A DNA stretch of 61,605 bases, the filler included, from Sanchytrium tribonematis (lineage: Eukaryota): assembly GCA_018985235.1 (NCBI GenBank). It is 8 parts of 8 records of this genome, joined end to end, with 100 filler letters (N's around TTAATTAATTAA, not from the genome) between each part and the next. Parts side by side here need not be neighbours in the genome. Positions count along the whole stretch, not along the records: positions 1 to 26,047 come from JADGIG010000063.1; positions 26,148 to 31,146 come from JADGIG010000650.1; positions 31,247 to 36,227 come from JADGIG010000651.1; positions 36,328 to 41,307 come from JADGIG010000652.1; positions 41,408 to 46,387 come from JADGIG010000653.1; positions 46,488 to 51,466 come from JADGIG010000654.1; positions 51,567 to 56,536 come from JADGIG010000655.1; 1 more part is not named here. One strand, 5' to 3'. Under the pieces are notes generated by a model. That model made no database searches. It had not been told where the DNA came from and worked only from the letters and a program-made list of their open reading frames with translations. This document shows, in pieces, positions 10,004 to 55,917 of this stretch. The first letter of the stretch is position 1, and each line of letters begins with the position of its first letter. Position numbers and translations under genes: made by a program.

Positions 10004-12239
10004 CTACAAATTTATTAAAGTACTCACTGTGTAGCATTTGAGAGGAATAAATATAACGCAGGAATAGGATTTAGTGGGGATGACACTGGTTGATAATTTT
10101 GTTAAATACTGACTATTTTGTTGCGAATAAAAGTTTACATCTTTATAAGCCTCTTCAATGGAAGATTTGAAGATTCGCATTATATCGAAACTTCTTTTGT
10201 GAGTAAATTTCTTAGTTTCCCTATTGTGAAATATCATATCCTCCACATCGCATATGTTTTTGCGCTTCAGTATTTCCAATGCTGATTTTCCAGAAATTGG
10301 TAGCTTGTCAAAGAATTCGATCGCATTTTGTAATGGCATCGCGTTCTCGAGTATAAGGTGACAAAAATGATTCACAAAAGAAAAGAATTGTGCGGTAATG
10401 TCGAGTGGTACATTAATTTTAAGTTTTTTGGTCGAGTTACAACAACATTTTTGACAATGAAATCCGGATGCTTTTTGTTTGCAACAATATTCGTGAACCC
10501 AGGAGTGGCACGAAAAACACTCTACAATGCTACTATCCTAGATAAACTGAATTTACCATTGAGACTTTACAAGGACAACAAATTAGAGATTCTGAATCTT
10601 GGTTATTTTCTTCCTCTCCAAAAACTTCGGCCTCAACTTTTGCAGGGTCGCAAGTCTCAACAACTAATCGATCCGAAGATGATTCGCCTTTGATCTCAGG
10701 CCCAACTTCGACGGGTATATCATTGTTTGTTGATTCTGAAATTGCTTTAGAACTATTTCTTGAATCTGAATGCGATTCTTGGCTGGTTTTAGAAATTTGA
10801 CTCTCGGCTATAAAGGAACAATCAGGACCAGTTATCTCATTTGTGGAATGCACAATATGGTCCAGAATTTCTTCAGCTTGAGGTTTCTCTTGGAACAAAG
10901 AGACAATATCATTTTTAAAGCATGTATCAGCTGCAATTTCAGAAATTTCAGCGTGTTCTTCTGTTGTTACTTCTGGGAATAATTTACAATCCTCAGTTTC
11001 GCCGTCATTAACGATGCATGTGGAGGTGCTACCATGACTAACATTATGACATTTAGGTCTCTTGTTGTCGATTATTGCCGTGTCAGCATTTTCGGGAAGA
11101 TTATCATTGGGTGCCGGGGAAATATACTTGGCTTCAACAGGCGTATTGCAATTCAAGGCCACCTCAGAAATGAATGGTGCAAGAGCCGCAACTTCGCTAC
11201 TAGGATTCCCCTCCACCATCTCAGTTTGCAATGGTTCAGTACAGGGTTGCGAAGAGTGCTGCAAAAAGACTTCTAGTAAATTTGATTTTTGAACACTCAA
11301 TTCTTGAGAATTTTTACAGTTTTGATTAGAAATATTTTCTTCTTCTTTGAAACAGATTTGCGAAGATTGTGCTTTGAATGGTTTGTAAAAATCAAGCATT
11401 TCTACCTGAGTAAATTCGCTTCCAGCAGTACTGGCAGCATATGTTTTCATTTTGTCAAAACTGCAGCTTGAATCTGATTCAGACTCATGTCTCAATTCCG
11501 CATTTTTATCTTCTTTACAGGATTCATCTTGAGGTTTTAAAATTTCGACGAGTTCAGTATTTTCCACTATAATGGAATTTGTGCTTTTCTTTTTTAAAGG
11601 CGAGCTGGGTTCTGTTTCGGAGGAGCGACTTTCAACACATTCTACTCTTTCATTGTTGGCTTTTAGTCTAGATTTTTCGGAATATTTTTCAGGCAACTTC
11701 TTTAGGGATATAGGAGTATTGAATATCGAAGGGCGCTCGGATTTAAAAAGGTCTTTTTTAAACTTATTGATAACAACAGGAGACATGACTATTTTGCTTG
11801 GTCTTTTCATTGATGCAATCGCCTTAAAGCAAATGTCGGGCTTTGATCGTTTTCTAGTATTCTTGAGTAATTTTGATTTTCCTAATGTTTTGAAGCTGTG
11901 CCTAAACTTTTTTTCCACTTTCACAATATCCAGTGCTTTGTCTTGTTTGTTCCATGGCAAGTTAACTTTTACTTCACAATCTGTCATACAATCTGATAAC
12001 AAATTAAGATCTCCGTCAGTCAAGAATTCTTTCAAACTGTAATCTACAGGACCGTTGATGAAATACTTCTCCCATGCATCCTTGTTTTCGAAAATTTTAC
12101 ATAAATCTTCTTTGCAAATTTTGGTTGACTGATTTCCATCCAGAAGATACAGGCAATCATCGAGAAGCTCAATTTCCAATTTTTGTGCTTCATTTTTAAA
12201 TACCAATTTAAATGGCTTATAATTCTTTTGTCGAAACAT
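10004..12239 (-). CDS. PHD-finger protein; exons 12239-10557 and 10537-10004
   Basis: Splicing the 19-nt intron joins two ORFs and rebuilds a C4HC3 finger: CCPCKVSM|DSSIVECFSCHSWVHEYCCKQKASGFHCQKC. Confidence 0.75.
10538..10556 (-). other. 19-nt spliceosomal intron GTAAATTCAGTTTATCTAG
   Basis: GT..AG ends; removal restores the frame and the PHD finger. Confidence 0.88.
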
Positions 12240-12354
12240 TTTTGGTTTCAAACTGATCAGTTGACCAAGTTGTTTGTTCAATATAAAATCAATTTCTTTA
12301 AGCCCTTAAAGTGCCGAATTTGAAATGGAAAGGATCAATTACCATACAAAGGAG

Positions 12355-13333
12355 ATGTCCAACAACATTAAAATATTTGCGGGAAACTCTCATCGACAAT
12401 TCGCGGAATTAATAGCTAATAGAATTGGTCTGCCTTTAGGAAAGTGCGGTGTTAGCAAATTCGCAAATCAGGAAACCTCTGTGAGTATTGGTGAAAGTGT
12501 GAGAGATGAAGATGTTTATATAATTCAAAGCGGGTGCGGTGAAATCAATGACCACTTGATGGAACTGTTGATTATGATTAGTGCTTGTAAAACAGCATCA
12601 GCTAGAAGAATTACAGCGGTTGTACCATGTTTTCCTTATGCCAGGCAAGATAAGAAAGATAAAAGTAGGGCTCCGATAACAGCAAAATTAGTTGCAAATA
12701 TGCTTACTGTTGCAGGAGCTGATCACGTTATTACTATTGATCTTCATGCTTCGCAAATTCAAGGATTTTTCAACATTCCTGTGGACAATCTATACGCAGA
12801 GCCCTCATTTCTTTATTGGATCAAGCATAATGTGGAGGAGCTTCAAAACGTTGTTATTGTCTCTCCAGATGCTGGTGGAGCAAAGAGAGCCACAGCTATC
12901 GCAGACAGGTTAAATGCCGATTTCGCGATAATTCACAAAGAGCGCAAAAAAGCAAATGAAATAGCCAGAATGGTTTTGATCGGGGATGTTACTGACAAAA
13001 TCGCTATTTTGGTTGATGATATGGTAGTTGACGCTCATTTAGGCTGATACGTGCGGCACACTTGGACTTGCTGCAACTCGCTTAATAGATGGTGGTGCGA
13101 AACAAGTCTATGCTATGGTTACGCATGGCATTCTTTCAGGCAAGGCGTTGGATGTCATATCTAATTCTCCCATCACTAAACTTGTCACCACAAATACAAT
13201 TCCACAAACTCAAAACTTGGATAAATGTTCTAAACTTGAAGTCATAGATCTTTCCGCCACAATTTCAGAAGCCATAAGAAGAACTCACAACGGTGAAAGT
13301 GTCAGTTATCTATTTAATCATGCTCCACAATAA
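12355..13333 (+). CDS. PRS: Ribose-phosphate pyrophosphokinase (PRPP synthetase); exons 12355-13023 and 13043-13333
   Basis: Motifs [18 protein letters not shown] and [10 protein letters not shown]; splicing restores the conserved LVDDM|ADTCGTL motif. Confidence 0.96.
13024..13042 (+). other. 19-nt spliceosomal intron GTAGTTGACGCTCATTTAG
   Basis: Exact removal gives DDMADTCGT with no gain or loss of residues. Confidence 0.95.
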
Positions 13334-13375
13334 AACTATAAGTTTAAATCGGACTTTGTCGGAGTTGAAACAAAA

Positions 13376-13531
13376 ATGATTACTGGTATGTTAAACAAAA
13401 GATTTGTGCGCGATTTATTGATTGCTGGTGTTACTGGAGGTCTTGTTGGGGCTTATTTTCAGATAAATGTCAGAGGAAAGGATATTGAGCGAAGGGCGCA
13501 ATTTTACGCCAGCTTGGAGAAACCTGAATAA
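13376..13531 (+). CDS. COX9: Cytochrome c oxidase subunit Cox9 (51 aa; absent from the ORF track)
   Basis: MITGMLNKRFVRDLLIAGVTGGLVGAYFQINVRGKDIERRAQFYASLEKPE follows the fungal Cox9 pattern ITG..(K/R)R...D..TM..R..FY..L. Confidence 0.8.
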   Translation: MITGMLNKRFVRDLLIAGVTGGLVGAYFQINVRGKDIERRAQFYASLEKPE

Positions 13532-13567
13532 ATTCTTCGATTTATTTCAATTACTCAAAATGTAAAT

Positions 13568-15842
13568 TTAAATTGTCTTTGTCCTCTGCCTCATGCCTAT
13601 GGGTTGCTTACTACTAGTCAAAAATTTCATTTGAGGGTCTGAATCAATAACACTCTCTGTACTCAAAAAATTAATATTGTCGAATGTACGTTTAAGGATA
13701 TCTATAGAAACGTTTTTGCATTGGGAAATATTGACATTGTCAATAGCAGGCGCATTAAGTAAAAATTCAATAACCGCTTCTTGTGAAATTTTAAAACATC
13801 CTCGAATACCTAGTCTTTTTAAGGACTGACTCGATGATAGGGTCTCTAGCCCTTTGTCAGTCACGAAGGAACCGCAAAAGCTTGCGTCTAAAGTCTCCAA
13901 ATTTTCTAGTCGAGAAACATGTTCTATACTTTTCTCGGTGAGACCACAGACAAAAGAGACGCACAGTAATTTTAAATTAGGACAGCTTTTTGAAATTATT
14001 TCTATGGAATTGTCAGTTAAAAAGCTACAGTCACTCAAAACTAAAACTTCAATATCAAAAATGTGACCCTCCAAATGCCTATAGCCCACGTCTGTTATAG
14101 AAGTACACCGTTGTAGATTTAATTTTTTGATATTTGCAAAAAGAAATGGGTCCTTGTATATATCATTGTTAATACTTTTGCAATAACTTAGACTCATTTC
14201 TTCTAATTGGCAAAAATCCAATAAGCTAGTAATTCCTGAAGCATCTACCTTTCTACAATTACTTAAATCAATAGATCTTATTTTTGGACACCCTTCTGCT
14301 AGGGCTATGAGACCTTCACTGGATATCTCCCAACAGCTATGTATATTGATAATTTCTAAATTCGGACAATTTAAAGCCAAACTAACTAGACCAGAGTTTG
14401 TAACCTTAAAGCATCCTTTCAAATTTATGCTTCTGAGACTGAATTTTCTACATTATAAACAATTACCCCAACTCTGATATTCCGTTTAGACCAGCATTAT
14501 TCATAGAGTTTTGATATTCGCACAAATCTATATTAACGCAAATAGTCGCTAATTTAGAGATCTCGTCATAAAAAGCCTGACAAACCGAGGATAAAGTAAA
14601 AATATCTCTAAATCTCAAAAAGTCAATGATACAGCGAAATATTTTAGGCTTTTCCAACGCAATGTTTAAAAGTTCAGAATAAATGTTATTAGTTTTTGAT
14701 TTTATATTCAAATTGGACAGTTTTTGCCCAGATTTTTTACGCTCCACTAATTTAGATAGGGTAGGATCTGCCCAAACCGCAATGCTGGCACGCCTTTTCT
14801 CCCCTGATGTAACCATTAATCGTTGAGAGTCAAATGATTTCGATAAATTAGACTTGCTACTTTTTTCTTCGCTAACCATTAAATTTTCAAGAGAATGCTC
14901 TAAAGACTTGACAAATGATAACTCTATTTGTTCTCGCACATCCGCATTGGATTCCATAAGTGCCAGAACCGATCTAGATTCCAGAATACAGGCAGTTCCT
15001 GCTGACAGCGCCAACAGAGTCTCATTCTCCAAGGTATCGCGATTATTAAGATTTAAAGCCCCATAAAACTCATTTTGAGCAAAGGATTTTTTTCTTATTT
15101 CGTCTGATATTGAGCTGCTTACAATTCCATTAAGGACCATTAAGATGCTCGGAGATGCATCATTTAAATTTATTTCGCCAGGCTGAAATCTAATTGTTTT
15201 TAATAATTGAAATATTTTTGATAAGGAATCTCCATCGCAAAATTGAAAAGGGGGAAATTTTTTTAGAGCCTTGCAAATTAATTCCTCGTCTAAAAAAAGA
15301 GAGTTGGTAGATTCATTTCCAGTATTTCCTGGGATAATGTTACTATTATATTCGGGGATTTCGTCCACTTTACCAAGCTTCTTATTATTTAAAGCTTCTA
15401 ATCTAGTTGATGCCTCATCTTCCAATTGAGTCCATAATTCTAAATTTTTGAAATCCAAATAATCTTGCTTATGCAAACATAGCACAAAACATTTCGATCG
15501 TGCTAAAACGTTGGCTGTCCTATTAACATTTTTTAATAATGCGATTTCTCCAAAGAATGATCCTGAATATAATGTCGCGTACACAATTTCATCGTCGCTG
15601 CTTAATATGTCGACCTCTCCTCTTATTAAAAAGAAAATTGCTTTACCTTCGTCGCCTTCTTGTATAATTTTATCTCCACTCAAATAAATTCTTGATTTCA
15701 TGACTTTACATAATTCTCTAATCGTATCATCGCCAGATTTTCTGAATAATGGATGATTCCTTAATGACTCTTCGATATCGCTAGGTAATTCATTAATTGA
15801 TTCGATGCTTAATTTTGATTCTTGATTCTTTTGTTGAAACAT
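13568..15842 (-). CDS. Cyclic-nucleotide-binding domain + F-box-like + Cys-containing LRR protein; exons 15842-14467 and 14447-13568
   Basis: cNMP cassette GSFFGEIALLKNVNRTANV; F-box-like IFRCIIDFLRFRDIFTLSSVCQ; LxxLxLxxCxxITD repeats. The two ORFs are joined by a 19-nt intron. Confidence 0.85.
14448..14466 (-). other. 19-nt spliceosomal intron GTAATTGTTTATAATGTAG
   Basis: Removal gives SELG|KFSLRSINLKGC, in frame with the LRR ORF. Confidence 0.9.
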
Positions 15843-15952
15843 CCGAAATTCTAGGTCAATTAATAAACAACGGTCTTTATTGTCAACTTGAATTAAATTT
15901 AGGTAAATCCAAAATAAAGTAGACTTAAAAAATCCTCAAACCAGGGTTCAAA

Positions 15953-17218
15953 ATGCTATGCAATGAACCTATTCAGATTTTCAAATATGACGATAGTTCT
16001 TTTCAAAACATAAAATATAGAGAAGATGGTATCGACAAATATATCGGAAAAGAGACTGACGCGTCACAAGAATCTTATGGGTTGGCCATTTTACAACATG
16101 AAGATGTATCCATCGGATGCTACACAATTAATGAGTACATTTACATATTCGACCCAAAAAGCGGTTTAGTATCAAATTTTATTCAGCTTCCGAAAAATGC
16201 AGAAGGGAAAGAAGTGCTTTACACCGTGGAGTTTGCAATTATAGAAGAAGAACTGTTTATTGCAGCCGGTGGATGGTATGGTTCTATTTATATTATAAAT
16301 TTAAATGATGCTACAAATTATGTAGTACTGGAGCAACATGGAGGACCAATTCATTGTATTCAAACGAACCCACAATACCCTCATATAATCGCAAGTTGTT
16401 CTGCCGATCGGACGGTAAAAGTGTGGGATTTAAAGCATTTTGTCAAGAATAACCCAAAAGATATGGACTCCATAATAACATTCGCCGGTGTTGGCGGTCA
16501 TAAGATGCAAGTCAATACGATTTGTTGGAATCCAGTTGGGGATAAGATCGCCAGCGGAGGCTACGATTTGATGATCTGCATGTGGGATATTCCCATTGAA
16601 CTTGTCGAAATTTGGAGCGGAAATCCATACAAAGAAAATTATGTATTTGAAATTTACCCACTTTTAATCCAGAATCCCGGTTGGTCAACAATGATGCTTC
16701 ATACAAGCGCCATTGATGATATATTATGGCTCAGTACTTGTTTGCTATCCAAGGCAGCAGATGGTGAGATTATATGCTGGAAGAAAGATGAAAGGGAAGA
16801 GATTGAATTTAATATCGATGTTGCGAGACTAAATCCTGTTGAGATAATTTTGAGAATGACTTTTGAGTCAGACACGACATGGTTCATCAGATTTGGTTAC
16901 TGCCGCCGAAATTGTCATGCAGTTTGTGGAAACAGCAGTGGTTCTTTGTTTTTTTGGAATTTAGAAGATTTGCTCATAAATAGGGAACGAGAATTTTTAA
17001 GCAAAAAGATCATTTTTGAAAATTTTGACATAGCTGATATGAGGGACACATATAATAACCATTGTAAGAGAATTAGTTATGACCCAGGACTAGGTTTTAA
17101 TTATTCCTACAAATACTTAAATTCCAACTGGAGAAATTTTGCATTCACAATTGATGGCTCGTATTGTTATGCTTTGAACGATAGTGGTATACTCATAAGA
17201 ATCAACAGCGAATGCTAA
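15953..17218 (+). CDS. EED: Polycomb PRC2 subunit EED/ESC-like WD40 protein
   Basis: FAGVGGH, LHTSAIDDILWLSTCLLSK...IICW and WFIRFG...CGNSSGSLFFWNL parallel EED signature segments. Confidence 0.75.
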   Translation: MLCNEPIQIFKYDDSSFQNIKYREDGIDKYIGKETDASQESYGLAILQHEDVSIGCYTINEYIYIFDPKSGLVSNFIQLPKNAEGKEVLYTVEFAIIEEELFIAAGGWYGSIYIINLNDATNYVVLEQHGGPIHCIQTNPQYPHIIASCSADRTVKVWDLKHFVKNNPKDMDSIITFAGVGGHKMQVNTICWNPVGDKIASGGYDLMICMWDIPIELVEIWSGNPYKENYVFEIYPLLIQNPGWSTMMLHTSAIDDILWLSTCLLSKAADGEIICWKKDEREEIEFNIDVARLNPVEIILRMTFESDTTWFIRFGYCRRNCHAVCGNSSGSLFFWNLEDLLINREREFLSKKIIFENFDIADMRDTYNNHCKRISYDPGLGFNYSYKYLNSNWRNFAFTIDGSYCYALNDSGILIRINSEC

Positions 17219-17231
17219 TAAATCTCTAAGT

Positions 17232-18246
17232 TTATTGCTGTATCAATTTAAAAAAATATTCCGACTCTAATTGTCCATCGTCCTCAAATTCTGTAAAAAA
17301 AATTCCAATGTCATTCTCTGAAGACAACAAGGCTCTTAAAGATGTCTTGTGTTTCAAAATAGAGACTTCCCTAGTGAGAGGGCCAACAATTTGTCTTAAT
17401 TTTTCCACAACATTTTCCGAGATCACCTGTCTAGATTAATATAAAATACATTATGACACAATTTCCTTTGCATAATGTATTACATAAATGGGAGATATTT
17501 GGAAGAACTCCAGCATAAATTTCCAAATAATTTGAAGCTTCTTCCCTGGAAAGCGATAGTGTAGTGATACAAGTCAATCGAAATGATTTCCTCAGATTTT
17601 CAAGAGCAAAACTAATTTTTCTATTATTAATAATATAGTCTGTTAAAATTACCACTGCTGAATTTTCATTTTGAAAAAGAAACTCAAGCTTTACAGATTC
17701 CAATTTTTCAATTATGTTATTGTCTCCAATAAAATTGCTTGAAATCGTCTTCATCGGTTTTTCAGTTGATCCGATAGCAATTATAAATATTTTATCACCA
17801 TCCAGACCGGAAATATTACAATCCTTGTTCGGCCAATAACCCATTTTCAGTATATGTACTTTTGCAAAGCTCTCAAAATGGCCAATTTGGTCCACTTCAT
17901 CAAGGGACTGTAGAACGAAAGCGATTTTAGAAATTCCGTAGATAACTTCTTCTGTAAATTCGTTTCCAAATCCCGTTATTTTATATGTGCGGGAAAATAA
18001 TTCAATGCATTCGAATTTTTTGAACTTTGTGATAGAGAGAGGAGCAATTCTTGATTTTTTCAAAAATAATTTGTTTCTGCTTTGATCAAATATTCTGACA
18101 CCTTGGGCAAAATATTGAGAGTTATTTCGATCGATATATAAAGTTAAAACAAAATTTCTTGTCAAACAAGAGTTCCGGTCAAAATGCTCAGCAAATATAT
18201 GTAACTCTTGTGTAGGTAAGGGCCCTATATCTTCTTCAATCAGCAT
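17232..18246 (-). CDS. NME7: Degenerate NME7/NDK7 (DM10 domain + NDP-kinase-like domains); exons 18246-17450 and 17430-17232
   Basis: DM10-like FAEHFDRNSCLTRNFVLTLY...IFDQSRNKLFLKK...FSRTYKITGFGNEFT; the C-terminal EDDGQLESEYFFKL resembles NME7 EDGLLEVQYFFKI. Confidence 0.8.
17431..17449 (-). other. 19-nt spliceosomal intron GTATTTTATATTAATCTAG
   Basis: Removal gives GNCVII|QVISENVVEKLR in frame. Confidence 0.9.
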
Positions 18247-18418
18247 AGCTACACAAATTATTAGCCACAAATGTTTTGAAAATTCTAGCACAGATATCAC
18301 ATTGACAGACCGACAGTTTTATTTCTATATTGCAGTAGTGACTATTAATTTCACCATCACATAAACAAAATATTAGTCAAGACATAATTTTAAATATTTT
18401 GACCAAGCCACAGAAGAT

Positions 18419-21032
18419 ATGAGCCAGAGCCAAAAGATATTAGATGTATCTTTGTTGTTTGAAGACGCTAAAGAATCTGGTTTAGATTTGGATGAAATAT
18501 TACAAACAAAAAGAAGGTCCTCCGCACCGGACTCCATAAATGATCCAAAAAAACGCGAAAGTTTAAATTTGGGTCCACTTTTAGAGGAAAACAAAGACAT
18601 GAGACCTTCAGAAACTAAAAACTTTCCCGAAAGAACATCATCAATAACTAGAAATCGTGGTATGAAAGGAAGAAAATTTTCTACTAAGCGAACAGCATCT
18701 ACTTTGTCCAATACCCTTGAAAATGAAAGCGAAACAAGCCTGGAAGAAAAAGAGACCGACAAGAAAGATAAGGAGCCAGGGTCTCCTACTTTATCTAGGA
18801 AAGGGAAAATGAGGAACAGTTCATTTGAATCTACAAATAGTGGAAATTCTACTAAAGCAATCTCTATACCTCGTAGGTCAGTATCTCTTCCATCAAAAGA
18901 AGTCGATACAATTATTATGGATGTTTCTAAAAGGATTCTGGGTGTACCTGGTCTTGCTGCAAATTGGAGACTTATTAAAAGCTTTAATACTCAATTTGAA
19001 GCGCTTCCTAGTATAATGAGTCCGAGTCTCCAGCCTTCAGAATCAAAACTAAATAATATTAATTTGATAATAGATCATTTGCACAGAGCTTTGCAATTGG
19101 TGTCAGAAGAAACTCATTCCCTTCTAGAAGCTCGAATTTCTGCGTTATTAGGGGTTGCAAATGATATCAGAGGGAAGCCTGAAATAGCCAAAGAATGGTT
19201 TATTAAATCTCTGACATGTATTCAGCATCAAATAGGCCAAATTTTTCCGGATAGTGCAAAAGAAGAAGCTGAAGTTTTAAATAGTAATCTCAATTTGGAT
19301 GACCAAAAGTCTATCTACGAGGGAATTAAACGAATCATGTCTCAAACCCAAACTACTCAAGATTCAGATGCTGTGGTAGTTGATCCAGCTTGGTTCGCTG
19401 AATTGCTAGGAAATATGGGAAACGTATGTTATGTTTTGTTGGAAACAAAAGAAGCGATAGGTTGGTACAGAAAGAGTGTTCTTATATGTAGACAAATTGT
19501 CACCACATATAGCAAATATGCACAGCCATATATACGTCCAATTGCTCAAATGATGTTGTCAGCAGAAGCTGGGATTGTTCGTGGATGTTGTCAATTAGCG
19601 CTTTGCTTTCAAGCATTAAATAGGATTCCTACAGCCATTTATTATTCTAGAAAAGCGCACGTATCCTACGAAGAATACAAGAGCGTTTTTGAAATCCATT
19701 CTCCCCAAACAGTTGTTCATACAATGGCAGTGTTGGAAACAATTAACTTAGTTTCTGGATGCAAGGTTTTATCTCTATGTTATTCAGAAGAAGGTCTAGA
19801 AAATTGTCCTGCCGATTATACTCACTTTTTGCTGTTTAGAAAGGCAGCCTCTACTTCCGAAAACGCTGCTCTTAGACACATTTTATGGAAAAATTTTCTC
19901 AAAACCTGCACCAAAGAACAATTTAATGATTTAACACAGCGAAACGTGACTAATAATTTCAGTGTATTTGTAAAATCTATGTTAAAAGAAGCAATTGATT
20001 CATTTGAAGCTGCTGATGTTGAAAACAATGATTTGATGTTTGATGCTAGACTTCATTTATTCGTCAGAGAAGGAATCGGTAAAGCTTTTTCACTTAGCTC
20101 AGATATTATTACTACTAGAGAATGGAAAAACATCATTTTCTCATCTTACCCAAACTTTGAAGAAACAAGCGACCAGGACCAAGGTAACTCTTGGTTTACC
20201 TCACGATTTTGTAATCCACATGTATCGTCGTCTGTATAGCCATTTAGGACAAACGTTGAAACCTTCAATGATGAGTGGGAGTGATTTATCAATCGGGTTT
20301 TCAATTGAAGAATGTATGTCATCACCCTGTGTACAGTACCACGATCATTATATCAAGAGTTCTCAAGCCGTTGGTGATGTTTATGGAAGGATTGTGGGCA
20401 CACTGAGGCTTTCTTATACCCATTATAATATCGCTTCGAAAATGTATACCAATTCAGGACCTTCTCAAGACGAGAGTTTGGAAAAGGCCTTTAATTATTG
20501 TCTCGAATGCGTTCAGACGTCACTTTATCACAATTTTTATAATTTCGCAGCGATTTCACTGTTACAAGCAGCGTCTGTTTTAGAATGTTATAGAGAATTA
20601 AGTGGTGCTAGAGACCCTCAATTCAAAGTAGATGTAAGCAAAGAAGCAAAAAAGATATCTAGTGTTAAAGAAACATGCTTTTTAGATTGGGACAACTGGA
20701 CACAAACAAGATTATTTTCCGCTATTAAAACAAGCAAAAATGAATTGAATTCGGCTATAATACAATATAGGTGGCTAGGAATAATGATAATGATTACTAA
20801 TTTATATGTCGTATCAAAAGAGGAATTGTTGATATCAGAAACACTAGAAAATCCAAATAATATCTTGAGGTTGCATTTTGATAAGGTAAGCAGATTAAAT
20901 GAGAGTGGTCATATTCTCGCATTTTTAGGTGACCAGGATGAGGCCGTATACCAAGAGATATTTAAAGTGTTGGAAATAACAAACAATCATGTCGCACAGA
21001 TCCAGGATTGGCTCGATGGCATTCACAAATAA
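18419..21032 (+). CDS. Large TPR-like helical protein with a disordered Ser/Arg-rich N-terminus; exons 18419-20078 and 20098-21032
   Basis: TPR-like AELLGNMGNVCYVLLETKEAIGWYRKS; two overlapping ORFs are joined by a 19-nt intron. Confidence 0.65.
20079..20097 (+). other. 19-nt spliceosomal intron GTAAAGCTTTTTCACTTAG
   Basis: It gives the required +1 frame change (VREGI|AQILLLLENG) and fits the intron consensus. Confidence 0.82.
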
Positions 21033-21043
21033 ATTTACTTTAA

Positions 21044-21475
21044 TTATATCAAAGACTTGCCTGTTTTAAGAAATTCAATTACTAAATCTACTAGTGAATC
21101 CATTTCATTTTCTTTTAATAAGATTCTAGACAGTACAATTCTGCTTGCATTGTGTAAACTTTGTTTTTCAATCAGGACTTTTAAAGGACTCTCGCATGTT
21201 TGCTCTAATCTAACTACAAAACCACAGATATTGATTTCTGGGAACATTTGAATCAAATTAGAATTGGAAAAGTTAATTTGCTGAATTTCACCATCCCGCG
21301 TAAGCTCACCTACTATTTCCTCTTTTTCATTGTCTTTTGAAAAATTAATCGCTGCTTTGAGCCCTTCAAAATCAATCTTTAAATCCCCCAATAGCTTCCC
21401 ATCAGTTGATTTTTCTATGTTTGCGGTTCCAATAGATTTAGAAAATCCATAGCCTGCAAGAAAAACCTTGGCCAT
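21044..21475 (-). CDS. Hypothetical protein (143 aa)
   Basis: ATG-initiated ORF that fills the gap between neighbours; no family recognised. Confidence 0.6.
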   Translation of the reverse strand: MAKVFLAGYGFSKSIGTANIEKSTDGKLLGDLKIDFEGLKAAINFSKDNEKEEIVGELTRDGEIQQINFSNSNLIQMFPEINICGFVVRLEQTCESPLKVLIEKQSLHNASRIVLSRILLKENEMDSLVDLVIEFLKTGKSLI

Positions 21476-30410: not shown

Positions 30411-31146
<736 letters not shown>

Positions 31147-31641: not shown

Positions 31642-31740
31642 TATGACTAGAAATGAATCAATCGAGTTGATTTGACCATGTATCACCCATTCAATTATCA
31701 ATAAAGAACCATTTAAATTAGGGATCGAAAAATCAACTCC

Positions 31741-34868: not shown

Positions 34869-34985
34869 ATAAATCACAATGACCTCTAGTTTTTTACAAT
34901 CTCTGTGATTCTCTGTACAACTCTGTGCAACCATGTGATTGTACAACATGATACAAAATAAATTTGTGATTTTCAAAATTACCCC

Positions 34986-38328: not shown

Positions 38329-38362
38329 ATAAAATATTTCACATTGTTTTAACAAGCCACTC

Positions 38363-41144
38363 ATGTACGCGCTATTTTTGACATTGCTTGCTGTTTCTAT
38401 AGATTGTTCAATAGTGATTCAATTGGGTATAGACATGGATATCAAGTATACAAATACAGAATATCAAATACAGTATGAAAAAGATTGTTGTTTGGGATAT
38501 GGTGTGATTTGTGAAAATGAACGAGTTGTTGAACTACATTGGGACTTTACAAGTAATTATGCGGGTGCTAGATATCCAATATTACATTTCCCGCCCATGT
38601 TACGCGTATTAAATTTGAGATATAGTCAAAAATCAATGATTATTCAAGAATTACCAGATACGTTGAAAGTAATGGATTTATATGGTGCGTATGACATTCA
38701 ATTAAATCTAAAAGTGTTTCCCAACTTGAGATTTCTTGGTTTATTTAGATTCTCAACATCTTTTATGCCAAAATTACCAAAAATACCAGAATCTGTAGAA
38801 TATTTGGATTTGGTGAATTACTATTCATACGAAATATTCCCATCTAAAAATAGCAATTTGAAAGTATTTTATGGATATGATGAATCATATGAAATGCCAT
38901 TTCCAGATCTTCCAGATGGCCTTGAAGTGGTAGAAATAATTGGTTCTAAATTAAAAGGCCCTATTTCTTTCAAATTCCCACATATTACTGATCTATATCT
39001 TACAAATTCTCTATTAAATGGTAATTTGACTATTTTATCACCTAATATCACTAGTTTGTATATTTATGACAGTTCATTTGATAATTTATATCTCCCATAT
39101 CCGGAGAAAGTTCAAAGCTGCGCATTGTCATCCGTATTTGATACTGAAAGCAATTTAACATTGAGTAAATTACCCTGTACATATACGCTGAAATCACCAA
39201 GATCTGTTGATTGTGATTCTATCATTTTATTTGCACGCCAATTAAATATGCATTTGACAAATCCAGAATACTGCAATTATCTCTCAACCAGTTCAAATTG
39301 CTGCGATGACCAGTTTTACCACGTGCAATGTAAAAATAATAGAATTTATGATATTTATTTTGAACGAATGAATTTAAATGGTACACTAAATACGACACTC
39401 TTGCCTGATACTCTTGAATTTATTTACCTACATGACAACCATTTACAAGGTGAATTCCCTAATTTGACTCATTTTACGAATCTACATACGATTTATATGG
39501 ATAATAACCAATTTAGTGGTCCTATTATGAATAAATTACCAGTACAGTTGAAAGTATTATATGCAAATTATAATCAATTAAATGGCACAATTCCAAATTT
39601 GAATTTACTCCAGGATTTGTTTTTAAGGGGAAATCAATTTGAAAATGTAGAAAATCAATTAATAGGCAATTCGATTCACAATATTGATATTTCTTATAAT
39701 CAGATTAAAGGAATCTTTGACATGTCTAATTATCAAGGTTCTACTTCATTTAATTTTCAAAGCAATTTTATTGATTTCATCATCACCACTTCAAAAATAT
39801 CCTCTTATTATTGTGATGTGACCATGAATCAATTAAATCAATCTGCATTAACTAATTTTATAAATTGTAATTACCAAATTCAAAGATATACACCCAATCA
39901 ATGCATGAATTATATGAAACTAGCTCAAAAAATGGATATTTTGAATCTAGATCGTGATCAAAATTGTTGTGCATCTAATCCATATATCAAATGTGATTAC
40001 AACATTATGACTGAATTGACAATTGCGTATCATCATCATATAAATTCATTTCATGGATACGCATTTTCAATTCAAGATTTGCCACTTAGTTTGAAGAAAT
40101 TATTGATTTTACAGCCATTTAATCAAAGTACCATGATTCCACCATTGATTCCTGGTCATATTAAATATTTAGAATTCACAAATGCAAATATTAGTGGTTA
40201 TTTACCACAATTTGCAGAAGGATTAGAAACATTAAAATTGACAAATCTTAAATTAATGGGTGGTTTGCCATTACTCCCGAGTACATTAAAAATATTAGAT
40301 GTGACCTATTGTGAATTATCTGGTGGGATTCCACCCCTTCCACCCAATTTACAAGCATTGTATTTAAATGGGAATCAATTGAGTGGTCCATTGCCAGTAT
40401 TCCCTGATTCGCTTTCAATCGTGGTATTGGGTGATAAAGTGAATGAAGGCAATACATTTACTGGCACACTCAATTTATATAAACCATCTTTAATCATTTT
40501 AGGAAATATTAATATTTCAAATGTGCAAATTAATGACACTTCAAAACTTGTAAATTGTGATTTATCATTTAATCCACTCTCAAATAGCACATTATTGAGT
40601 AATTATACCATTTGTACACAATTTTATTTGACTGCAAAACCACTTTTAATGCAAATTGAGAGTACCAAAAGTAAAACTAGCTCATGGTTTTCCACAGATA
40701 CTACAAATTTGCCACAATCAAGTGAATCAACTTCAACAGTGTCAACAATAGTTGCACAATCAAGTGAAATAAGCACCATGGAAGATCCAGAAATGCTACA
40801 ATCCAGTAATTTATGATAATTTAGTCAAAAGACGTGCTATTTTTAAAGCAAGTGCAACTTTAACCACTTTACAAAGCTACTTTTTTACGAATACAACCCA
40901 AATTAATACGCAAACCAATACACAATCTATAATTAATTTGTCTAAATTTGATAAACCTGTAATTGTAATCAAATGGACATGGCAAATTATATTAAGTATT
41001 GTTTTGGATTTATTGGTGATGTATAATATCATTTTTGCAGTTTATAGTGGAAGAAAGAGGAAATCAAAGCAGCTATACAATCAAGCTAATAGTTATGTGT
41101 TCTGTATTGCCACTGGACACTTGCAAATCACTCATTATCAGTAA
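38363..41144 (+). CDS. Receptor-like LRR protein (short leader, three Cys-capped LRR modules, Ser/Thr stalk, C-terminal TM); exons 38363-40805 and 40825-41144
   Basis: Repeated SxDC...CC...C.N.RI caps and LxLxxNxLxGxIP repeats; splicing adds TM WQIILSIVLDLLVMYNIIFAVY followed by RKRK. Confidence 0.85.
40806..40824 (+). other. 19-nt spliceosomal intron GTAATTTATGATAATTTAG
   Basis: Removal gives QS|IKRRAIFKAS in frame to the TM exon; same position and phase as in the contig-7 paralog. Confidence 0.9.
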
Positions 41145-41407: not shown

Positions 41408-41584
41408 CATCAATTGCACCTGGTGGTATATAGGACTTATTTAGGAGGTTACACTATTAAATTAGAAAGCTACGATCAAGATGGTGAATTAATTTTCTGC
41501 TTCAGTGGTTCATTCACCTTGAAGAAAAAAGAAATTCCAAGTGGAAAATTCTCTCCTTATAGCAGATACAATAAATTAGATTAG
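41408..41584 (+). CDS. ML/NPC2-like lipid-binding domain C-terminus; 5'-partial; exons 41408-41425 and 41445-41584
   Basis: Spliced product SIAPGG|GYTIKLESYDQDGELIFCFSGSFTL matches the ML-domain C-terminal pattern. Confidence 0.65.
   Translation, partial: HQLHLVVYRTYLGGYTIKLESYDQDGELIFCFSGSFTLKKKEIPSGKFSPYSRYNKLD
41426..41444 (+). other. 19-nt spliceosomal intron GTATATAGGACTTATTTAG
   Basis: Fits the consensus, and removal yields an ML-like P-x-G-x-Y junction. Confidence 0.8.
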
Positions 41585-46487: not shown

Positions 46488-47204
46488 CTCCACAACCAAC
46501 TCCAATGCCAACACCTGTAAGTCCAAGTAGACCAGCTAGTCCATTCGGGACCCAAAAAAGAAGTAATACAAAGCTGGCAATGGTTAGAAGAGCCTTCACC
46601 GCAACTGACGATGAGATTGAGAAATTGAGCAGCAATCCATCGAGCCCATCCTTTCCGCAAGAAATGATTTTCAATGAGTATTTCAAATTTATTTAGAAGG
46701 AAGTATTGTGTATTTTATATGGATGATGGCGGATATAGAAGTACGGATGAAGGTGATGAGCTAACCCAGGAATTATACTTTATTGGGATCATAGATATAC
46801 TGACACCTTACAATGCAAAAAAGAAAACAGAAAGTGTCTTAAAACGAGTCTTTCAGGATAAATATGGAGTGAGTGCTGTAAAGCCTTCATTTTATGGTGA
46901 GCGATTCTTCAATTTTATGAGAACTCTAACAAGCATTACAACTGTATCAAACAATGCACCTGAATTTCCACCACTCCCAATTTTAGAATCAAAACTAAAG
47001 GAGCAACAAGATAGTGTACAACCAGTTAGCTTGGTGCAAGCATTTCAAAAATCAAATCATCAGTCCTACACACGGTCAACCAAATCCACTAAACCCTCGC
47101 AAATCGCGACTTTCAGCTCGACTAAATCTACGGAAAGTAGTCTTTCGAAAGCTGTAGAGCCCATATTGGAAAAACCAACTGTCGCGAGTCCCACTCAAGA
47201 ATAA
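46488..47204 (+). CDS. MSS4: Phosphatidylinositol-4-phosphate 5-kinase C-terminus; 5'-partial; exons 46488-46677 and 46697-47204
   Basis: E|RKYCVFYMDDGG, ELYFIGIIDILTPYNAKKKTE and VSAVKPSFYGERF. Confidence 0.88.
46678..46696 (+). other. 19-nt spliceosomal intron GTATTTCAAATTTATTTAG
   Basis: Joins ORFs 46505-46696 and 46674-47204 in frame. Confidence 0.9.
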
Positions 47205-47337: not shown

Positions 47338-47427
47338 ATGAATTATTTATTGGCAGTAGCTACTGCATTATCAGCTCGTAAAATTAAGCAAGATGGTGTT
47401 ACGCTTGTTGAAATTGTTGAACAATAA
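47338..47427 (+). CDS. Candidate 29-aa peptide MNYLLAVATALSARKIKQDGVTLVEIVEQ
   Basis: TATATAAG starts 29 nt upstream, the N-terminus is hydrophobic, and the stop overlaps AATAAA as in other genes here. Confidence 0.4.
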   Translation: MNYLLAVATALSARKIKQDGVTLVEIVEQ

Positions 47428-47450
47428 ATATTTTTGAACTCTACATTTTT

Positions 47451-48038
47451 ATGAAACTTCCTTTAAATAAAAGAATCAAATCTTACTTTTTAAAATATCC
47501 AAAACTCAAATATTTTGTGGGGACGTTTGTTCTTGTATCTCTTATACTAATCATTGTGCTGCCATTGACTGTCACACCAAAGCCAAATCTTAATCAAATA
47601 TATTTTACATTTTATGGATTTGATGATAATGATGATGGAAAACATCACTATGGAACAAGTAAAATATCAGATCCGACTATTCATCAGGTTGCTACAGAAG
47701 ATTTGGGGACATATGATAATCCAAGCACATTTGCTGGCGACGAAAAATACAGATTGACCAAAGCAGGCCAAAGAATATATGTTCCAAGATTAAAAAAGTA
47801 TTATATTATGGAAGATACTTGTGTAGAATGCACTGCGGATCAAAATAGAGGTAAATTGAGGATCGATTTGTATATTGGTGGAAATACTGCTTTGCAAAAC
47901 CCAGCCTTGAAGGACTGCCAGTCAAAACTGACTGTTGATAAACCATATACTGAGACTGTCATAATCGATCCGCCAAATAATCTTGCTGTAGACACTAAAC
48001 CATTATTTTCAAGTGATGGATGTTATGTTCCAAGTTAA
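47451..48038 (+). CDS. Type II membrane protein with a 3D/double-psi-barrel-like domain (copy 1)
   Basis: N-terminal TM; TFYGFDDND, GTYDNPSTFA, GQRIYVPRLKKYYIMEDTC and RIDLYIGG. Confidence 0.75.
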   Translation: MKLPLNKRIKSYFLKYPKLKYFVGTFVLVSLILIIVLPLTVTPKPNLNQIYFTFYGFDDNDDGKHHYGTSKISDPTIHQVATEDLGTYDNPSTFAGDEKYRLTKAGQRIYVPRLKKYYIMEDTCVECTADQNRGKLRIDLYIGGNTALQNPALKDCQSKLTVDKPYTETVIIDPPNNLAVDTKPLFSSDGCYVPS

Positions 48039-48094
48039 ATAAAATTTTGTTTTCTTTTAAGATCCGAGTAAATCTCAGATTTTAGGCCTACTGA

Positions 48095-48775
48095 ATGAAA
48101 CTGTCGATATCCAGATTCCATCACAAATTGAAATTGTTGAATATCAAATACCCTAAACTTAAGTTGATTGCACTAATTATTTTTGTGGTGATTGTTGTTT
48201 TATGCGTAGCTTTACCCTTGACTTTAATTACACCACCAAATACAAGTCCTTACTCTACAGGAAATGAAAGCAATGGCAAAAATGATACTAATTCCTTGAC
48301 TATTACGAAGAGTAACGAGACAATATTAAATAATATCTATTTTACATTCTACGGGTTCGACGACAATGACAATGGGATGGGTACCTTTGCAACTGCTGTC
48401 ATCTCTGACCCTACTATCCATAAGATAGCTACAGAAGATCTAGGGACTTTTGAACGACCAAGTACATTTGCTGGTGATGAAAAATACAGATTAACTGTCG
48501 GGGGTCAAAAAATTTACGTACCAAGGCTCAAAAAATACTACATCATGGAAGACACGTGTGTGGAATGTACTAGAGATCGCAATAAGGGCAAATTAAGAAT
48601 AGATTTGTACATTGGTGGAAACACTAAAGTAGAAGGAAAACCATTAAGCGACTGCGAAGGTAGCCTAACTTTGGATGTGCTTTATTCAGAAACTGTAATT
48701 ATAAATCCAAATGCCTCTCACCCGGTAGACACCAAGCCTTTATTTTCGAATGGTACCTGCTACGTGCCCAAATAA
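48095..48775 (+). CDS. Type II membrane protein with a 3D/double-psi-barrel-like domain (copy 2)
   Basis: Tandem paralog with the same motifs and a longer Asn/Ser/Thr stalk. Confidence 0.75.
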   Translation: MKLSISRFHHKLKLLNIKYPKLKLIALIIFVVIVVLCVALPLTLITPPNTSPYSTGNESNGKNDTNSLTITKSNETILNNIYFTFYGFDDNDNGMGTFATAVISDPTIHKIATEDLGTFERPSTFAGDEKYRLTVGGQKIYVPRLKKYYIMEDTCVECTRDRNKGKLRIDLYIGGNTKVEGKPLSDCEGSLTLDVLYSETVIINPNASHPVDTKPLFSNGTCYVPK

Positions 48776-51566: not shown

Positions 51567-52092
51567 TTGGCAGGGTAGTTAAAGAACCACTAAAATCATT
51601 GCTACTTATTCTGAAAAATGACAAATTAGCGGGTAAATTAGAAATAGTCCCATTTAAATGATTATGTCTTATATCCAAAAACACCAAATTATTTGGTAAT
51701 ATTGGTAAATTTCCATAAATAGAGGCACCGTATATATCAATTTCCATAACAGAGTCTGGAATTCCATTTGGTAGAACTGTATTTAGCTTATCATTCGCAT
51801 ACATAGTAAGACGATCCAAATTTGGTGGAATAAATTCTGAATTGATAGTTCCATTGATATTCAACAGGTTTAATTTGAGCACATTGATTCTATTAGATAG
51901 GCAGTAAATGTATATATTTGTTGAAATACTACTATATCCACAGCAATCTGTTGGAATTTGTTGAAATTCAATTGGGTCCGTTATGTGCATATTTAGTGAT
52001 TTGAAGAAATTGATAACCAATGGACAGTCTACAGAGACACCATTGACAAGTAGTCGCATGAATATCATGAAAACTATACAAAGGTGATTCAT
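51567..52092 (-). CDS. LRR receptor-like family member; 3'-partial
   Basis: Hydrophobic leader, SVDCP...LNMH..DCC cap and LRRs as in 38363-41144. Confidence 0.8.
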
Positions 52093-52787
52093 AAAATTTT
52101 AAAATCTTCTGAAACAATTGGCCTACCAACATTGAAGCAACAGTCACGGTAGAAACAAAAATTCATTGATACTCAAACAATCTTAAATGTAGTGACTATT
52201 CTTTGTATACCATTAAATCAATGCTTACTCATCAACAAGTCATTTACTGACTATTATCTCAAACAGAAATACCATCATCCCAATCTATATATTTTTAATT
52301 TTATCGCTAAAATTCCCAAATTCAAAATCCAATATCAATAGAATTTCATTGTTTAAAATTAATAACTAACAAGAATTATTAAAGTCATTTTGAACCATTG
52401 GAATATGGATTATATTTGTATTATAACTTGCAGTCTCATTTTGCATTTAATTATTTGACCAGGAATGAGTTTAAGTGTAAATAAATAATTTATTTGTGTT
52501 TTAGAAAGTGTAATCTGCTGAAAAAGGCTTTTTTGGATTTCTTTTGTGCTGTTCTAATGAATAATTACCATAAAAGAGACCAATTAATAGCAAAACATCC
52601 ACAGATACTCTAATAATTAGTCTAAATGTCAATTTAAATTCAAATATTACCGGATTTGGAAATTTTGTGAGATTGTTGGCAGTGATGCTTTTAGTGGCCA
52701 TTTCACTGAATAAGGATTCTGTATCGTTGTACATAATACTACTAGCTACAATCACACTCGATGCTTTGTAAAATACACGCGTCACAA

Positions 52788-52806
52788 CTAAATTAATAGA
52801 AATAAC
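52788..52806 (-). other. 19-nt spliceosomal intron GTTATTTCTATTAATTTAG
   Basis: Removal gives RS|IVTRVFYKAS; homologous to intron 40806-40824. Confidence 0.88.
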
Positions 52807-54079
52807 TTGATCTGGCATCTGTGGTTGTAAAATCCAAATTATCGGGTAAATATGACAAGTAGTACTTATTACACATGCTATAATTAGCAATATATGAGCT
52901 ATTTAGCAAGGGATTAAAGGATAAATCACAGTATGTTAATAGACTCGTGTTTTGTAATTGGACTTCATAAATAGACGTATTTCCTAATACTAATAATTTT
53001 GGTTTCTGCAGAATGACCTTGTCGTTGAAGAAATTGCTTTCGTTGACTAGATCCCCCAATACGACATCATTTAAAGAAGCAGGAAATGGGGGCAATGGAC
53101 CTGTTAGAAAATTCCCCTGAATTCGCAATTGTTGTAAATTGGGTGGTAAAGTAGGAAGTTTGCCTGTCATATTACATTCAACTAATTGAAGTACTTTTAA
53201 TGTGCTAGGTAATTGAGGGATCGTCTGATTAAAGTTTCCTTTTTTAAATTTTAAAGTCTCTAATCCCTCTGAGAATATTGGCAATTTGCCTCCAATATAT
53301 GGGCCTTCAATGCTAAGATATTTCACATTCCCTGGAATATAGTCTGGTATTCTTGCTGTTTGGTTATAATTGCCAAAAATGTACAATGATTCTAAAGTTG
53401 AAGGAATATCTGCAATTGAAAATGCAAACCCGTCTACAGTTTGTAATAGATCCCCTCCATCTATACTTAATTCTGTCACATTTAGACTTTTGCATGTTAT
53501 ATATTTACTAGTTTCACAGCAATTCTCATCCCGTACTGAATCGCTTTGAATTCCCATTTTTTGAAACATATTCTCAACCAATTTGCATGCGCCTAGGGAT
53601 GTCGGAATCGAATATTTTTGAATTTCTGATTTGCATTTTGTTAAATTGACCAAATTAGCTATTGAAATATTGTTTAAGGAAACATCACAAGATCGAATCA
53701 CACTCAAATTTGTTGTCACAACTTTCTCAATCAGATTATTTCTCAAATTGAATTCATTATATGCTGAAGGATCAAATTTTGAAGCGTCTAAAATCCCTTT
53801 AATCTTATTATTTTTCAAGTATAATTGAGTCCAAGTATTTCCCTTTAATTCATTTTCCACATTATCAAATTCATTGTCAGCAGCTGAAAACATTTGTAGC
53901 TGAATTAAATTGGGAATGGTGCCATTTAATTGATTCGTATCTAGGGCTAAATTCACTAGAGTATTGGGTAATTTGCCAAATCTCCTCACTGCCCACTCTT
54001 AAGTTGTAGAAAATCCGGTACCCCAAATTTCAGAAATGACGCCATAAATTTCTGTTGAAAATCCGGACAAATACTAGAT

Positions 54080-55917
54080 TTATTCTATTCTTGGTATTTC
54101 AATGTTCCTTGCTTCTTCCAAGTCTGCTACTGTATATGGACAGTTTCTACCAAGTGTGTGCCATAAAGTATGGCATTCTATGGCATGTAATCTAATTTCG
54201 GGATCACAAAATGTGCATCCATACGTCGTAGTGCTTCTTTTGCGCTTGTATTCCTTGCAATATTTACACTCCCGTCCTGCACCACCATAATTGCGTGGCC
54301 AATGTCCAAATGCAGTTGTCAAAAACCACCATGGCTGGCTGGATTCTATTGAAACAGGAATAGTCATTCTCTGTGATCTTCTGGTTCTTTTGGTGTATGT
54401 TCTCCCTCCAATCAAATGCTCAATAATGGCAAGTCTAAATTCCTCTATTGTATGACTATGCCCTAATAAATTAAAAATCACAGAGGATGCCACAATGTAG
54501 AAATCAAGAAACCAGAAGAAGGATCACAACCACCATCGACGTGTATGCAACAAAGTGGCAAATTTTTCCATCTTCTGATCGCATAAATCAGACCCTCCCA
54601 TATTCCAGTTGTAGGAAATGGCAATTTTGGGAAGAGCAAGAGTAGTGCTGCCATTTACAGTGACCAACTGATATTCATTTGCAACATCATTACTCACATT
54701 GCGTTTTACTGTGATGGTTTCATGTCTCTCGTCAATCAAAACGGGATGGGTAGTGGCAAAGTACACATTTTTGACCTAAATAAATAAAAATGTACGGCAC
54801 CAGTTTGTAATTTAATCATTCTTAGTAATACTTGGTTGACATCTTGAATATAAAGTGATTGGTAGAAAGAATCACCTTGTAATTCTTGTAAAATGTGGTC
54901 TGGAATCCTGTTGGTTCTAATGGTGCCACAATAATATATGCCTCTCTCTAGTAATGTATTCATTAATTCACGGGTAGTAAACCAGTTGTCACAAAATAAA
55001 CAAACACTAGAATCTTCCAAGAATTCTGTCATTTTTGACACGATTCGTATCACTTTGCCAGCATCCGAATCAGATTTATCATCAAAATAAAATGCAAATG
55101 GATAACCCGTCCTCGGGCAACAGAGTGTAAAGACTTTAAATCCACGTGGTTGTGGCTTGGTTTTAATTGTGAATGTTTTAGAATCCCTCCCTGTCCATGG
55201 AATTATTGCCTCGTCAAGTGACAGTGCATTGGGAGCAACCACAAATAATCGTAATAAACTCTCTTTTTCAAGGATTGGTTTTAATTTGAAAAGTTTATCT
55301 GTAGAATCAGATTGTTCATTGTTGGTTAAATGCAAATTTTGCATAAAAAACTTGAAATCGTTCTTTGTCATGACCTTTTTTACGTAATCATCACCAAACG
55401 GGAATGATGTTGTCCAATGATTGTCCACATTGGCACGTTTTCTATGCATTAAAAGCAATGCTAGTCCTAAAAATGTCTTAATTTTGTTTCCATCAATGCC
55501 ATTTGGGATATCAGAGGTAGAAACTGGTATGTTGTTATCTGCTGCTCTTTTTGCTTTTTTTTGATGGCAGTAAATGGATGTTTGTACTGCTATAGAGTCA
55601 AAAAACTCGGATTTAAAAAATAAACTAAAAATTTCACTGGGAGTTACTGCTTGCAAGTCAGGAAATCCATCAGCATCACTCTCCAGACCAAGTTCAGAGG
55701 CAATGGCAGGTGTATTTGGCTCGATACAGCCCTCAAAGTCTCGCACATAACTCAAAATATCTGTCAAAGAAGAAAAGTCTAGCCAAATGTCCTCTTCGCA
55801 CTGCTCCATCATCTCCTCATATCCCTCTTCAGATGAGATACTTGCTTCCGATTCACTGAGCCAGTCATCATCGCTCTCAAGTGGAAATGCGTCACTTGTG
55901 GGTAATGAAGATGACAT
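54080..55917 (-). pseudogene. piggyBac-type DDD transposase (~605 codons) with a C-terminal Cys-rich domain, one 20-nt intron and one in-frame TGA (54524-54526)
   Basis: SLDEAII, KTKPQPRGFK, FCDNWFT, GTIRTNR, YNWNMGGSDLCDQ, RRWWL*SFFWFLD and CKYC..TTYGCTFC..C. Confidence 0.9.
54776..54795 (-). other. 20-nt spliceosomal intron GTACATTTTTATTTATTTAG in the transposase
   Basis: It has the length class needed to join the frames, gives LQTGA|VKNVYFATTH, and shares the host 3' consensus. Confidence 0.8.

Follow-up and report, generated by a model that had tools for sequence, protein, structure and literature searches.

The genome of Sanchytrium tribonematis (GCA_018985235.1) carries, in the stretch of 61,605 nucleotides (nt) analyzed here and hereafter called the window, 11 inserts of 19 or 20 nt bounded by GT and AG. 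These inserts are very likely genuine spliced introns, the splicing itself being something that we infer from sequence comparison, and in all probability they are spliceosomal introns of the major (U2) class whose size fell to a lower limit in the ancestor of the sanchytrids. The window joins eight contigs by N spacers and holds 60.9 kb of gene-dense sequence with 35% G+C. Its PRPP synthetase is closest to a protein of Amoeboradix gromovi (92% identity, the next matches lying at about 82% or less), and a kinase fragment matches a protein of S. tribonematis with 100% identity over 57 residues and one of A. gromovi with 91% identity. The Sanchytriomycota are algal parasites, sister to the Blastocladiomycota, with genomes of 10.5 to 11.2 Mb (PMC8371127).

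Motif, length and exact ends of the inserts

The coordinates, GT..AG ends and lengths given for the 11 inserts in a first-pass annotation of the window all proved correct. Read on the coding strand, every segment runs from GT to AG; the length is 19 nt in 10 of them and 20 nt in one. They lie on six of the eight contigs, and excision opened the frame in each case. All three phases are represented (four introns in phase 0, four in phase 1 and three in phase 2). At the 3' end, all 11 have T at position -8, A at -6, a pyrimidine at -5 and T at -3 and end in TAG, while at the 5' end 10 start with GTA, all have A or T at +5, and 10 have T at +6. The inserts thus share the pattern GTA-x-W-T...T-N-A-Y-N-TAG. 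The combination of T-8, A-6 and T-3 was found in only 10 of the 311 other 19-nt GT..AG strings of the window (3.2%). When each insert was scored with a weight matrix built from the others, 8 of the 11 ranked above every background string of the same length, two were matched by 1 of 311, and one was matched by 3 of 311. Introns of the U12 (minor) type are marked by the donor RTATCCTT and the branch sequence TCCTTAAC; column counts showed neither, and this class was rejected.

The 19-nt length also stood out when other lengths were scanned. With the full matrix and a score of at least 6, we obtained 11 strings at 19 nt, namely, the 10 named inserts and one antisense string, compared to 0 to 2 at each of the other lengths between 14 and 40 nt and 5 at 13 nt, a comparison that is partly circular. 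A scan with the motif of the first-pass annotation gave 14 hits of 19 nt where 3.7 were expected, but the four additional hits are at chance level; at 18, 20 and 21 nt the same motif was no more frequent in the window than by chance. The matrix scan supported no hidden in-frame introns of 18, 21 or 24 nt and no introns with a GC donor in the window. Frame repair alone cannot fix the length, since a filter based on frame and codons passed 150 candidate joins of many lengths, among which 19 nt and 118 nt tied with eight each. Judged by frame alone, most of the breaks accept longer GT..AG joins too, and the exact ends of the introns starting at 10538, 20079, 46678, 40806 and 52788 therefore rest on the motif.

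The repair had been claimed to be residue exact in two conserved enzymes, and homolog alignments bore this out. In the PRPP synthetase gene (12325..13333, plus strand, two exons, identified by homologs and Pfam), which carries a 19-nt phase 0 intron at 13024..13042 between DDM and ADT, the 19-nt cut was the best of four alternatives against all 112 full-length homologs. In the Akt-like kinase gene (30411..31146, minus strand), of which the 3' part with two exons was recognized by Pfam and the rest is cut off by the contig end, removal of the 19-nt phase 0 intron at 30957..30975, between HIKVT and DFG, outperformed three alternative cuts against 97 of 97 homologs, and the Pfam Pkinase match continues across the junction, from positions 84 to 140 to positions 141 to 263. 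Another candidate intron in this gene, 30925-30943, was rejected as coding, being favored by none of the 97 homologs. The result was less sharp for a gene encoding a cNMP-binding/F-box/LRR protein (13568..15851, minus strand, two exons, 754 amino acids once spliced, identified by profile and homologs), which carries a 19-nt phase 2 intron at 14448..14466. Here, several full-length fungal homologs aligned without a gap across the junction left by the 19-nt cut, but the margin of this cut over those of 25 and 28 nt was only 0 to 5 bits, and other cuts were favored by some homologs. The ends of the remaining eight introns are supported by motif and frame.

Orthologs and haplotypes

The public sanchytrid proteins are TransDecoder predictions made on genomic contigs (PMC8371127). 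Since TransDecoder reads through introns, the tails of these proteins record intron sequence, and the intron lengths of relatives given here were obtained by back-translating 10 tails from outside the window, that is, from protein and not from DNA. In each of the four genes compared, the A. gromovi ortholog stops matching at the codon where the window gene breaks, as do five proteins from environmental contigs. The trait thus arose before the two described genera, Sanchytrium and Amoeboradix, diverged. The intron sequences of the orthologs are unrelated, while their position is kept. Three read-through tails of A. gromovi orthologs gave 19 nt. Among the individual tails, P0142, P0141 and P0001 gave 19 nt; in the first two, the DFGLCK that follows is translated in the wrong frame. 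In P0246, the stop falls exactly at positions 17 to 19 and T-8, A-6 and T-5 are fixed by the codons, again giving 19 nt, whereas P0133 is compatible with 20 nt only and P0245 fits best at 21 nt.

The orthologs of the cNMP/F-box/LRR gene and of a neighboring NDK7-like gene (window 12310-18318) lie on a single A. gromovi contig, NODE_55, as p5 and p9, which suggests that gene order is conserved in this region. Outside the sanchytrids, four intron-bearing, fungal-like PRPP synthetase loci among seven aligned from metagenomes have no break at DDM/ADT and thus give no support for an ancestral intron position. The metagenome scan with PRPP synthetase gave no sanchytrid-like locus among the matches listed, the best of which had 73% identity.

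A search for sequencing runs listed one DNA run and no RNA run. Contigs derived from this DNA run, which is possibly the source of the window itself and hence not independent, were compared with two of the eight window contigs. They bridge the introns at 10538, 13024, 14448 and 20079 unchanged and without visible joints; the one at 17431 is covered, with fewer than 31 letters on one side. Among the matches listed, the kinase intron at 30957 is bridged in a 20-nt form only. This second haplotype has one additional base between the donor and the branch site, together with one substitution within the intron, and translates exactly to the tail of P0133. The insertion is the sole indel among the variants listed for that 5-kb contig, and all eight exon differences between the two kinase haplotypes are silent in the spliced frame.

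A similar signal was seen in other genes. All four variants in the downstream exon of the NDK7-like gene fall at third codon positions, three of them being silent, and in a gene encoding a TPR-repeat protein, eight of nine upstream variants are silent, with no variants downstream. When two downstream exons were pooled, all 10 variants fell on the third base of a codon as read after splicing, and 9 of the 10 were silent. The read-derived contigs also revealed patches in which haplotypes differ by several percent (17355-21131, 26515-26603 and 30801-31069), pointing to a heterozygous or mixed source.

Competing explanations and a possible mode of splicing

Taken together, the inserts have the features of U2-type introns, namely, GT..AG ends, T-N-A-Y near the 3' end, a conserved protein restored by excision in three genes (and an open frame in the other eight), and, in the four genes compared with relatives, a position that is conserved while the sequence diverges. 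On the strength of motif, repair and orthologs, it is very likely that these are spliceosomal introns of a fungal genome with an origin independent of those in ciliates, mikrocytids and nucleomorphs, in line with the independent origin proposed in the first-pass annotation. Its claim of a fixed length stood in part: 10 of the 11 introns are indeed 19 nt long, but the length changes from 19 to 20 nt between haplotypes, and the tails of relatives fit 19, 20 and possibly 21 nt. What is invariant across the set is the distance from the putative branch A to the AG.

The alternative that we take most seriously, although we think it unlikely, is that the tiny introns are real but form the short mode of a wider distribution, with ordinary longer introns and an unremarkable spliceosome also present. 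Microsporidia do keep a separate class of 76-nt introns (PMC6349667), and most core spliceosome factors are annotated in A. gromovi. The sample is also small: the claim that no longer intron was needed is true within the checks made, yet 0 long introns out of 11 bounds their share only below about 24%. Speaking for a narrow range, no break in the window required a longer intron, the informative ortholog tails all fit 19 to 21 nt, and the coding strands of the window contain no high-scoring candidate of 21 to 30 nt that is otherwise unexplained.

Two further explanations would deny that the inserts are spliceosomal introns at all. Errors of assembly or amplification, or frameshifts in dead genes spanned by GT..AG by chance, might be invoked because the hosts include a decayed transposase gene and an LRR gene split by the same element, and because the sole read set may be the window's own source. 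We regard this as very improbable, and for four genes it is already largely refuted: read-derived contigs bridge four inserts unchanged and a fifth in its 20-nt form, in relatives from separate assemblies, identical codons are interrupted by inserts that differ in sequence, the exon variants downstream of the inserts are mostly silent, and the PRPP synthetase is 92% identical to that of A. gromovi. Removal by a nonspliceosomal route, such as cleavage and ligation of the Ire1 type, or a bypass by ribosomal frameshifting, appears equally remote. The Ire1-type introns of HAC1 and XBP1 mRNAs are 19 to 26 nt long, a size similar to that of the inserts, and have stem-loops at both junctions; however, the inserts share no fold (z-scores of -1.45 to +2.10 against shuffled sequences for all 11), and GT..AG and the branch-like A are invariant. 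As for frameshifting, several inserts contain in-frame stops, and the set tolerates a length change of +1, which would be fatal to simple frameshifting. In the kinase, keeping the six extra residues before DFG gave a poorer fit than the exact cut for every one of the 97 homologs.

Several observations nevertheless weigh against the reading of the inserts as shrunken U2 introns. The sample consists of 11 introns in 60.9 kb that were chosen via frame breaks, and the ortholog tests cover 4 of the 11. The tails of P0122, P0124 and P0139 end before the intron does; 20 nt is their best fit provided that the branch A is within the tail, but they may belong to longer introns, and the tail of P0397 gives no length. 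The silent-site signal is uneven, since only two of nine variants in the upstream exon of the NDK7-like gene are at third positions. The 20-nt intron candidate at 54776..54795 belongs to a transposase gene that is decayed and contains an in-frame stop, and a plain frameshift is a rival explanation there. The absence of Slu7, Prp18 and U1C, described below, is drawn from an annotation that is about half complete and made on intron-blind open reading frames (ORFs). Finally, the whole case is comparative, and branch point, lariat and splicing efficiency are all deduced from it.

If the inserts are shrunken U2 introns, A-6 would be the branch point, paired by U2 through the short T-N-A-Y site, and the 3' AG would be taken a fixed five bases past it, leaving no space for a polypyrimidine tract. 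The donor would consist of little beyond GTA with T at +6. The loop from donor to branch would measure 14 bases, with 15 or 16 tolerated. The intron would then be recognized as a single small unit, its 3' end set by sequence and its 5' span lying at the steric minimum of the spliceosome, so that the design would be anchored at the 3' side with a minimal loop rather than measured by a strict 19-base ruler. Deletion bias may have trimmed longer introns down to this steric floor, as in the model put forward for mikrocytids, in which the floor comes from spliceosome function and is approached through deletion bias (PMC10245619). Unspliced transcripts would be frameshifted and encode truncated products. 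So short a distance from branch to AG would also make Slu7 and Prp18 dispensable; Slu7 has been described as unnecessary where the branch lies 9 nt or fewer from the 3' splice site (PMC10158995).

The spliceosome genes annotated in A. gromovi (Supplementary Data 1 of PMC8371127, whole sheet) include Prp8, Brr2, SF3B1, the large and small subunits of U2AF, SF1, U1-70K, Luc7, Prp40, Prp22, Yju2, Cwc25, Isy1 and cactin, and the annotation of the first S. tribonematis contigs has rows for U1-70K and SmD1. Of the factors sought, only Slu7, Prp18 and U1C had no row matching the identifiers used in the A. gromovi sheet, in which about half of the proteins are annotated. The modified spliceosome that the first-pass annotation took the introns to imply is therefore hypothetical. 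A loss of Slu7 and Prp18 would match the short distance from branch to AG, but this is suggestive only. The 11 introns in 60.9 kb correspond to a density of about 0.18 introns per kb, which, if the window is representative, extrapolates to about 2,000 introns per genome (range, 1,000 to 3,600). Extended to the whole phylum, the scenario becomes a tentative one, more open to doubt than the identity of the inserts themselves: Sanchytriomycota would have only introns of 19 to 21 nt, shorter than those of any other Fungi and numbering about 2,000 per genome; they would have kept U1, U2AF, SF1 and the branching factors and lost Slu7/Prp18 and U1C owing to the five-base lock between branch and AG; the lariat would be of 14 bases; and both published proteomes would be truncated at every intron.

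Host genes and known systems of minimal introns

The other eight introns lie in genes of varied kinds. On the minus strand, the 19-nt phase 0 intron at 10538..10556, called by motif and frame, joins an ORF at 10557-12305 to one at 10004-10537 across a Cys/His-rich stretch that has no Pfam match and that we take to be PHD-finger-like. Also on the minus strand, a 19-nt phase 2 intron at 17431..17449 interrupts the NDK7-like gene, which has a weak match to the NDK7 N-terminal domain, and is supported by the variants and by the end of the A. gromovi ortholog; for the cNMP/F-box/LRR intron, the A. gromovi tail likewise fits 19 nt. The TPR-repeat gene carries a 19-nt phase 1 intron at 20079..20097 (plus strand) with the weakest motif score of the set, supported in addition by frame. 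A contig-end gene fragment with a weak ML-domain match has a 19-nt phase 1 intron at 41426..41444 (plus strand), also called by motif and frame, where an in-frame donor three bases upstream, at 41423, would make the intron 22 nt long; PDB searches gave no decision between 19 and 22 nt for this intron and none for the transposase junction. The 19-nt phase 2 intron at 46678..46696 (plus strand) lies in a PIP5K-family kinase gene and has ends based on the motif, the upstream piece being without a profile match.

Two introns belong to paralogous LRR genes, one at 40806..40824 (plus strand) and the other at 52788..52806 (minus strand), both 19 nt long, in phase 1 and called by the motif. Their position and phase are identical, and their sequences differ. 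LRR proteins with an N-terminal hydrophobic leader are encoded at 38333-41144, 51567-52098 and 52501-56536, with the intron just before a C-terminal hydrophobic segment, and we speculate that intron retention would yield an unanchored form. The second of the intron-bearing genes is broken upstream by a piggyBac-like element (53980-56083, minus strand), which has 16-nt terminal inverted repeats and outer ends that read AT, not TTAA. Its transposase gene (DDE_Tnp_1_7) has an in-frame TGA at 54524-54526 and the phase 0, 20-nt intron candidate at 54776..54795 (minus strand), which was called by the motif and outscored all 272 background strings of its length in the leave-one-out matrix. An intron of the host's tiny format in a transposon suggests long residence or local gain.

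Elsewhere on the plus strand, 3-8057 is a single frame free of introns that extends over at least 2,684 codons and contains DUF6606, DUF3638 and DUF3645 domains. Protein kinase genes or fragments form a tandem array at 31247-35876; there are at least five of them, divergent and all lacking introns, and several have hydrophobic N termini. A tandem pair of paralogs at 47421-48775 carries a membrane anchor at the N terminus; one of the two was scanned and is without a Pfam match. At 56915-61066, there are three tandem paralogs, each starting with M-x-F-x-T-T-x-L-A-H-C; the one that was scanned has a weak match to AA9 (lytic polysaccharide monooxygenase), and it is plausible that they are host-wall enzymes. 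An Rfam search of the window matched only a compact nuclear RNase P RNA of 186 nt (43195-43380, plus strand, model positions 1 to 301) and no spliceosomal small nuclear RNA (snRNA).

Uniform ultra-short introns are known from heterotrichs (15 to 16 nt), mikrocytids (16 to 17 nt) and nucleomorphs (18 to 21 nt) (PMC10245619). The nucleomorph introns of Bigelowiella natans come closest in size, being 18 to 21 nt long and called 19-nt introns, with GT..AG ends and a narrow range (PMC10245619, PMC2483917), but they belong to the relict nucleus of an alga, in which about 300 genes contain more than 800 introns, compared to about 0.18 introns per kb in a fungal nuclear genome here. Stentor coeruleus introns resemble the sanchytrid ones in their GUA start, U-rich body and a branch A that also sits at -6 (position 10 in introns of 15 nt and 11 in those of 16 nt), and Stentor keeps most spliceosome parts, as A. 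gromovi does by annotation (PMC9505925). Its introns are, however, 15 to 16 nt long, RNA confirmed and from an unrelated lineage, with a lariat loop of 10 nt, as opposed to 19 to 20 nt with a predicted loop of 14 to 15 nt. Mikrocytos mackini and Paramikrocytos canceri are parasites too and show a main length with a minor +1 class (217 of 224 introns at 16 nt and 7 at 17 nt [PMC10245619]), but their introns are shorter and their spliceosome has 17 to 19 proteins with no U1 found, in contrast to the U1-70K, Luc7, Prp40, U2AF, SF1 and branching factors annotated in A. gromovi.

Closer to the Fungi, the introns of Encephalitozoon cuniculi are also short and of the GT-AG type, and their branch motif, CTAAYTT, adjoins the AG (PMC6349667, PMC2483917). 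These are about 25 nt long, number a few dozen, have a strong consensus, are biased to the 5' end of genes and are poorly spliced, whereas the sanchytrid introns are 19 to 20 nt long, have a weak branch consensus, lie in the middle or late part of genes and number an estimated 1,000 to 3,600 per genome. As Sanchytriomycota are sister to Blastocladiomycota, their shortening is separate from that of microsporidia. Rozella allomycis, an early-branching fungal relative, also has short introns, of about 30 nt (PMC6349667), some 8 to 10 nt longer than those here. Among other opisthokont parasites, myxobolid myxozoans and Dicyema have ultra-short introns with a donor reduced to GTa and have kept U2AF, but with medians of 22 to 27 nt, spread lengths and a putative branch A that recedes from the AG with length, unlike the fixed -6 seen here (PMC13644364). 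We found no report of sanchytrid introns in the open literature, subscription journals lying outside the search, and the string "splic" is absent from the main text of the genome paper, the supplement being covered in part (PMC8371127). Ultra-short introns thus apparently have not been reported for Sanchytriomycota so far, and these would be shorter than any fungal introns that we found described, although the kind itself is known elsewhere.

If true, these findings would mean that near-minimal introns also arose, independently, in Fungi, with lengths below the approximately 25 nt of microsporidia, the approximately 30 nt of Rozella and the myxozoan medians of at least 22 nt. As the 3' end is Stentor-like but the loop size differs, comparing the two would test whether minimum intron length is set by loop sterics or by snRNA pairing, and the natural 19/20-nt polymorphism of the kinase intron lends itself to testing how splicing efficiency depends on length. 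The warning that gene finders would break these genes holds insofar as the public sanchytrid proteins are truncated at the introns of the PRPP synthetase, Akt and two other genes, but the cause is an intron-blind ORF caller and not a minimum-intron setting. With an extrapolated 1,000 to 3,600 such sites per genome, this may distort gene counts, the tally of "lineage-specific" proteins and claims of gene loss for the phylum.

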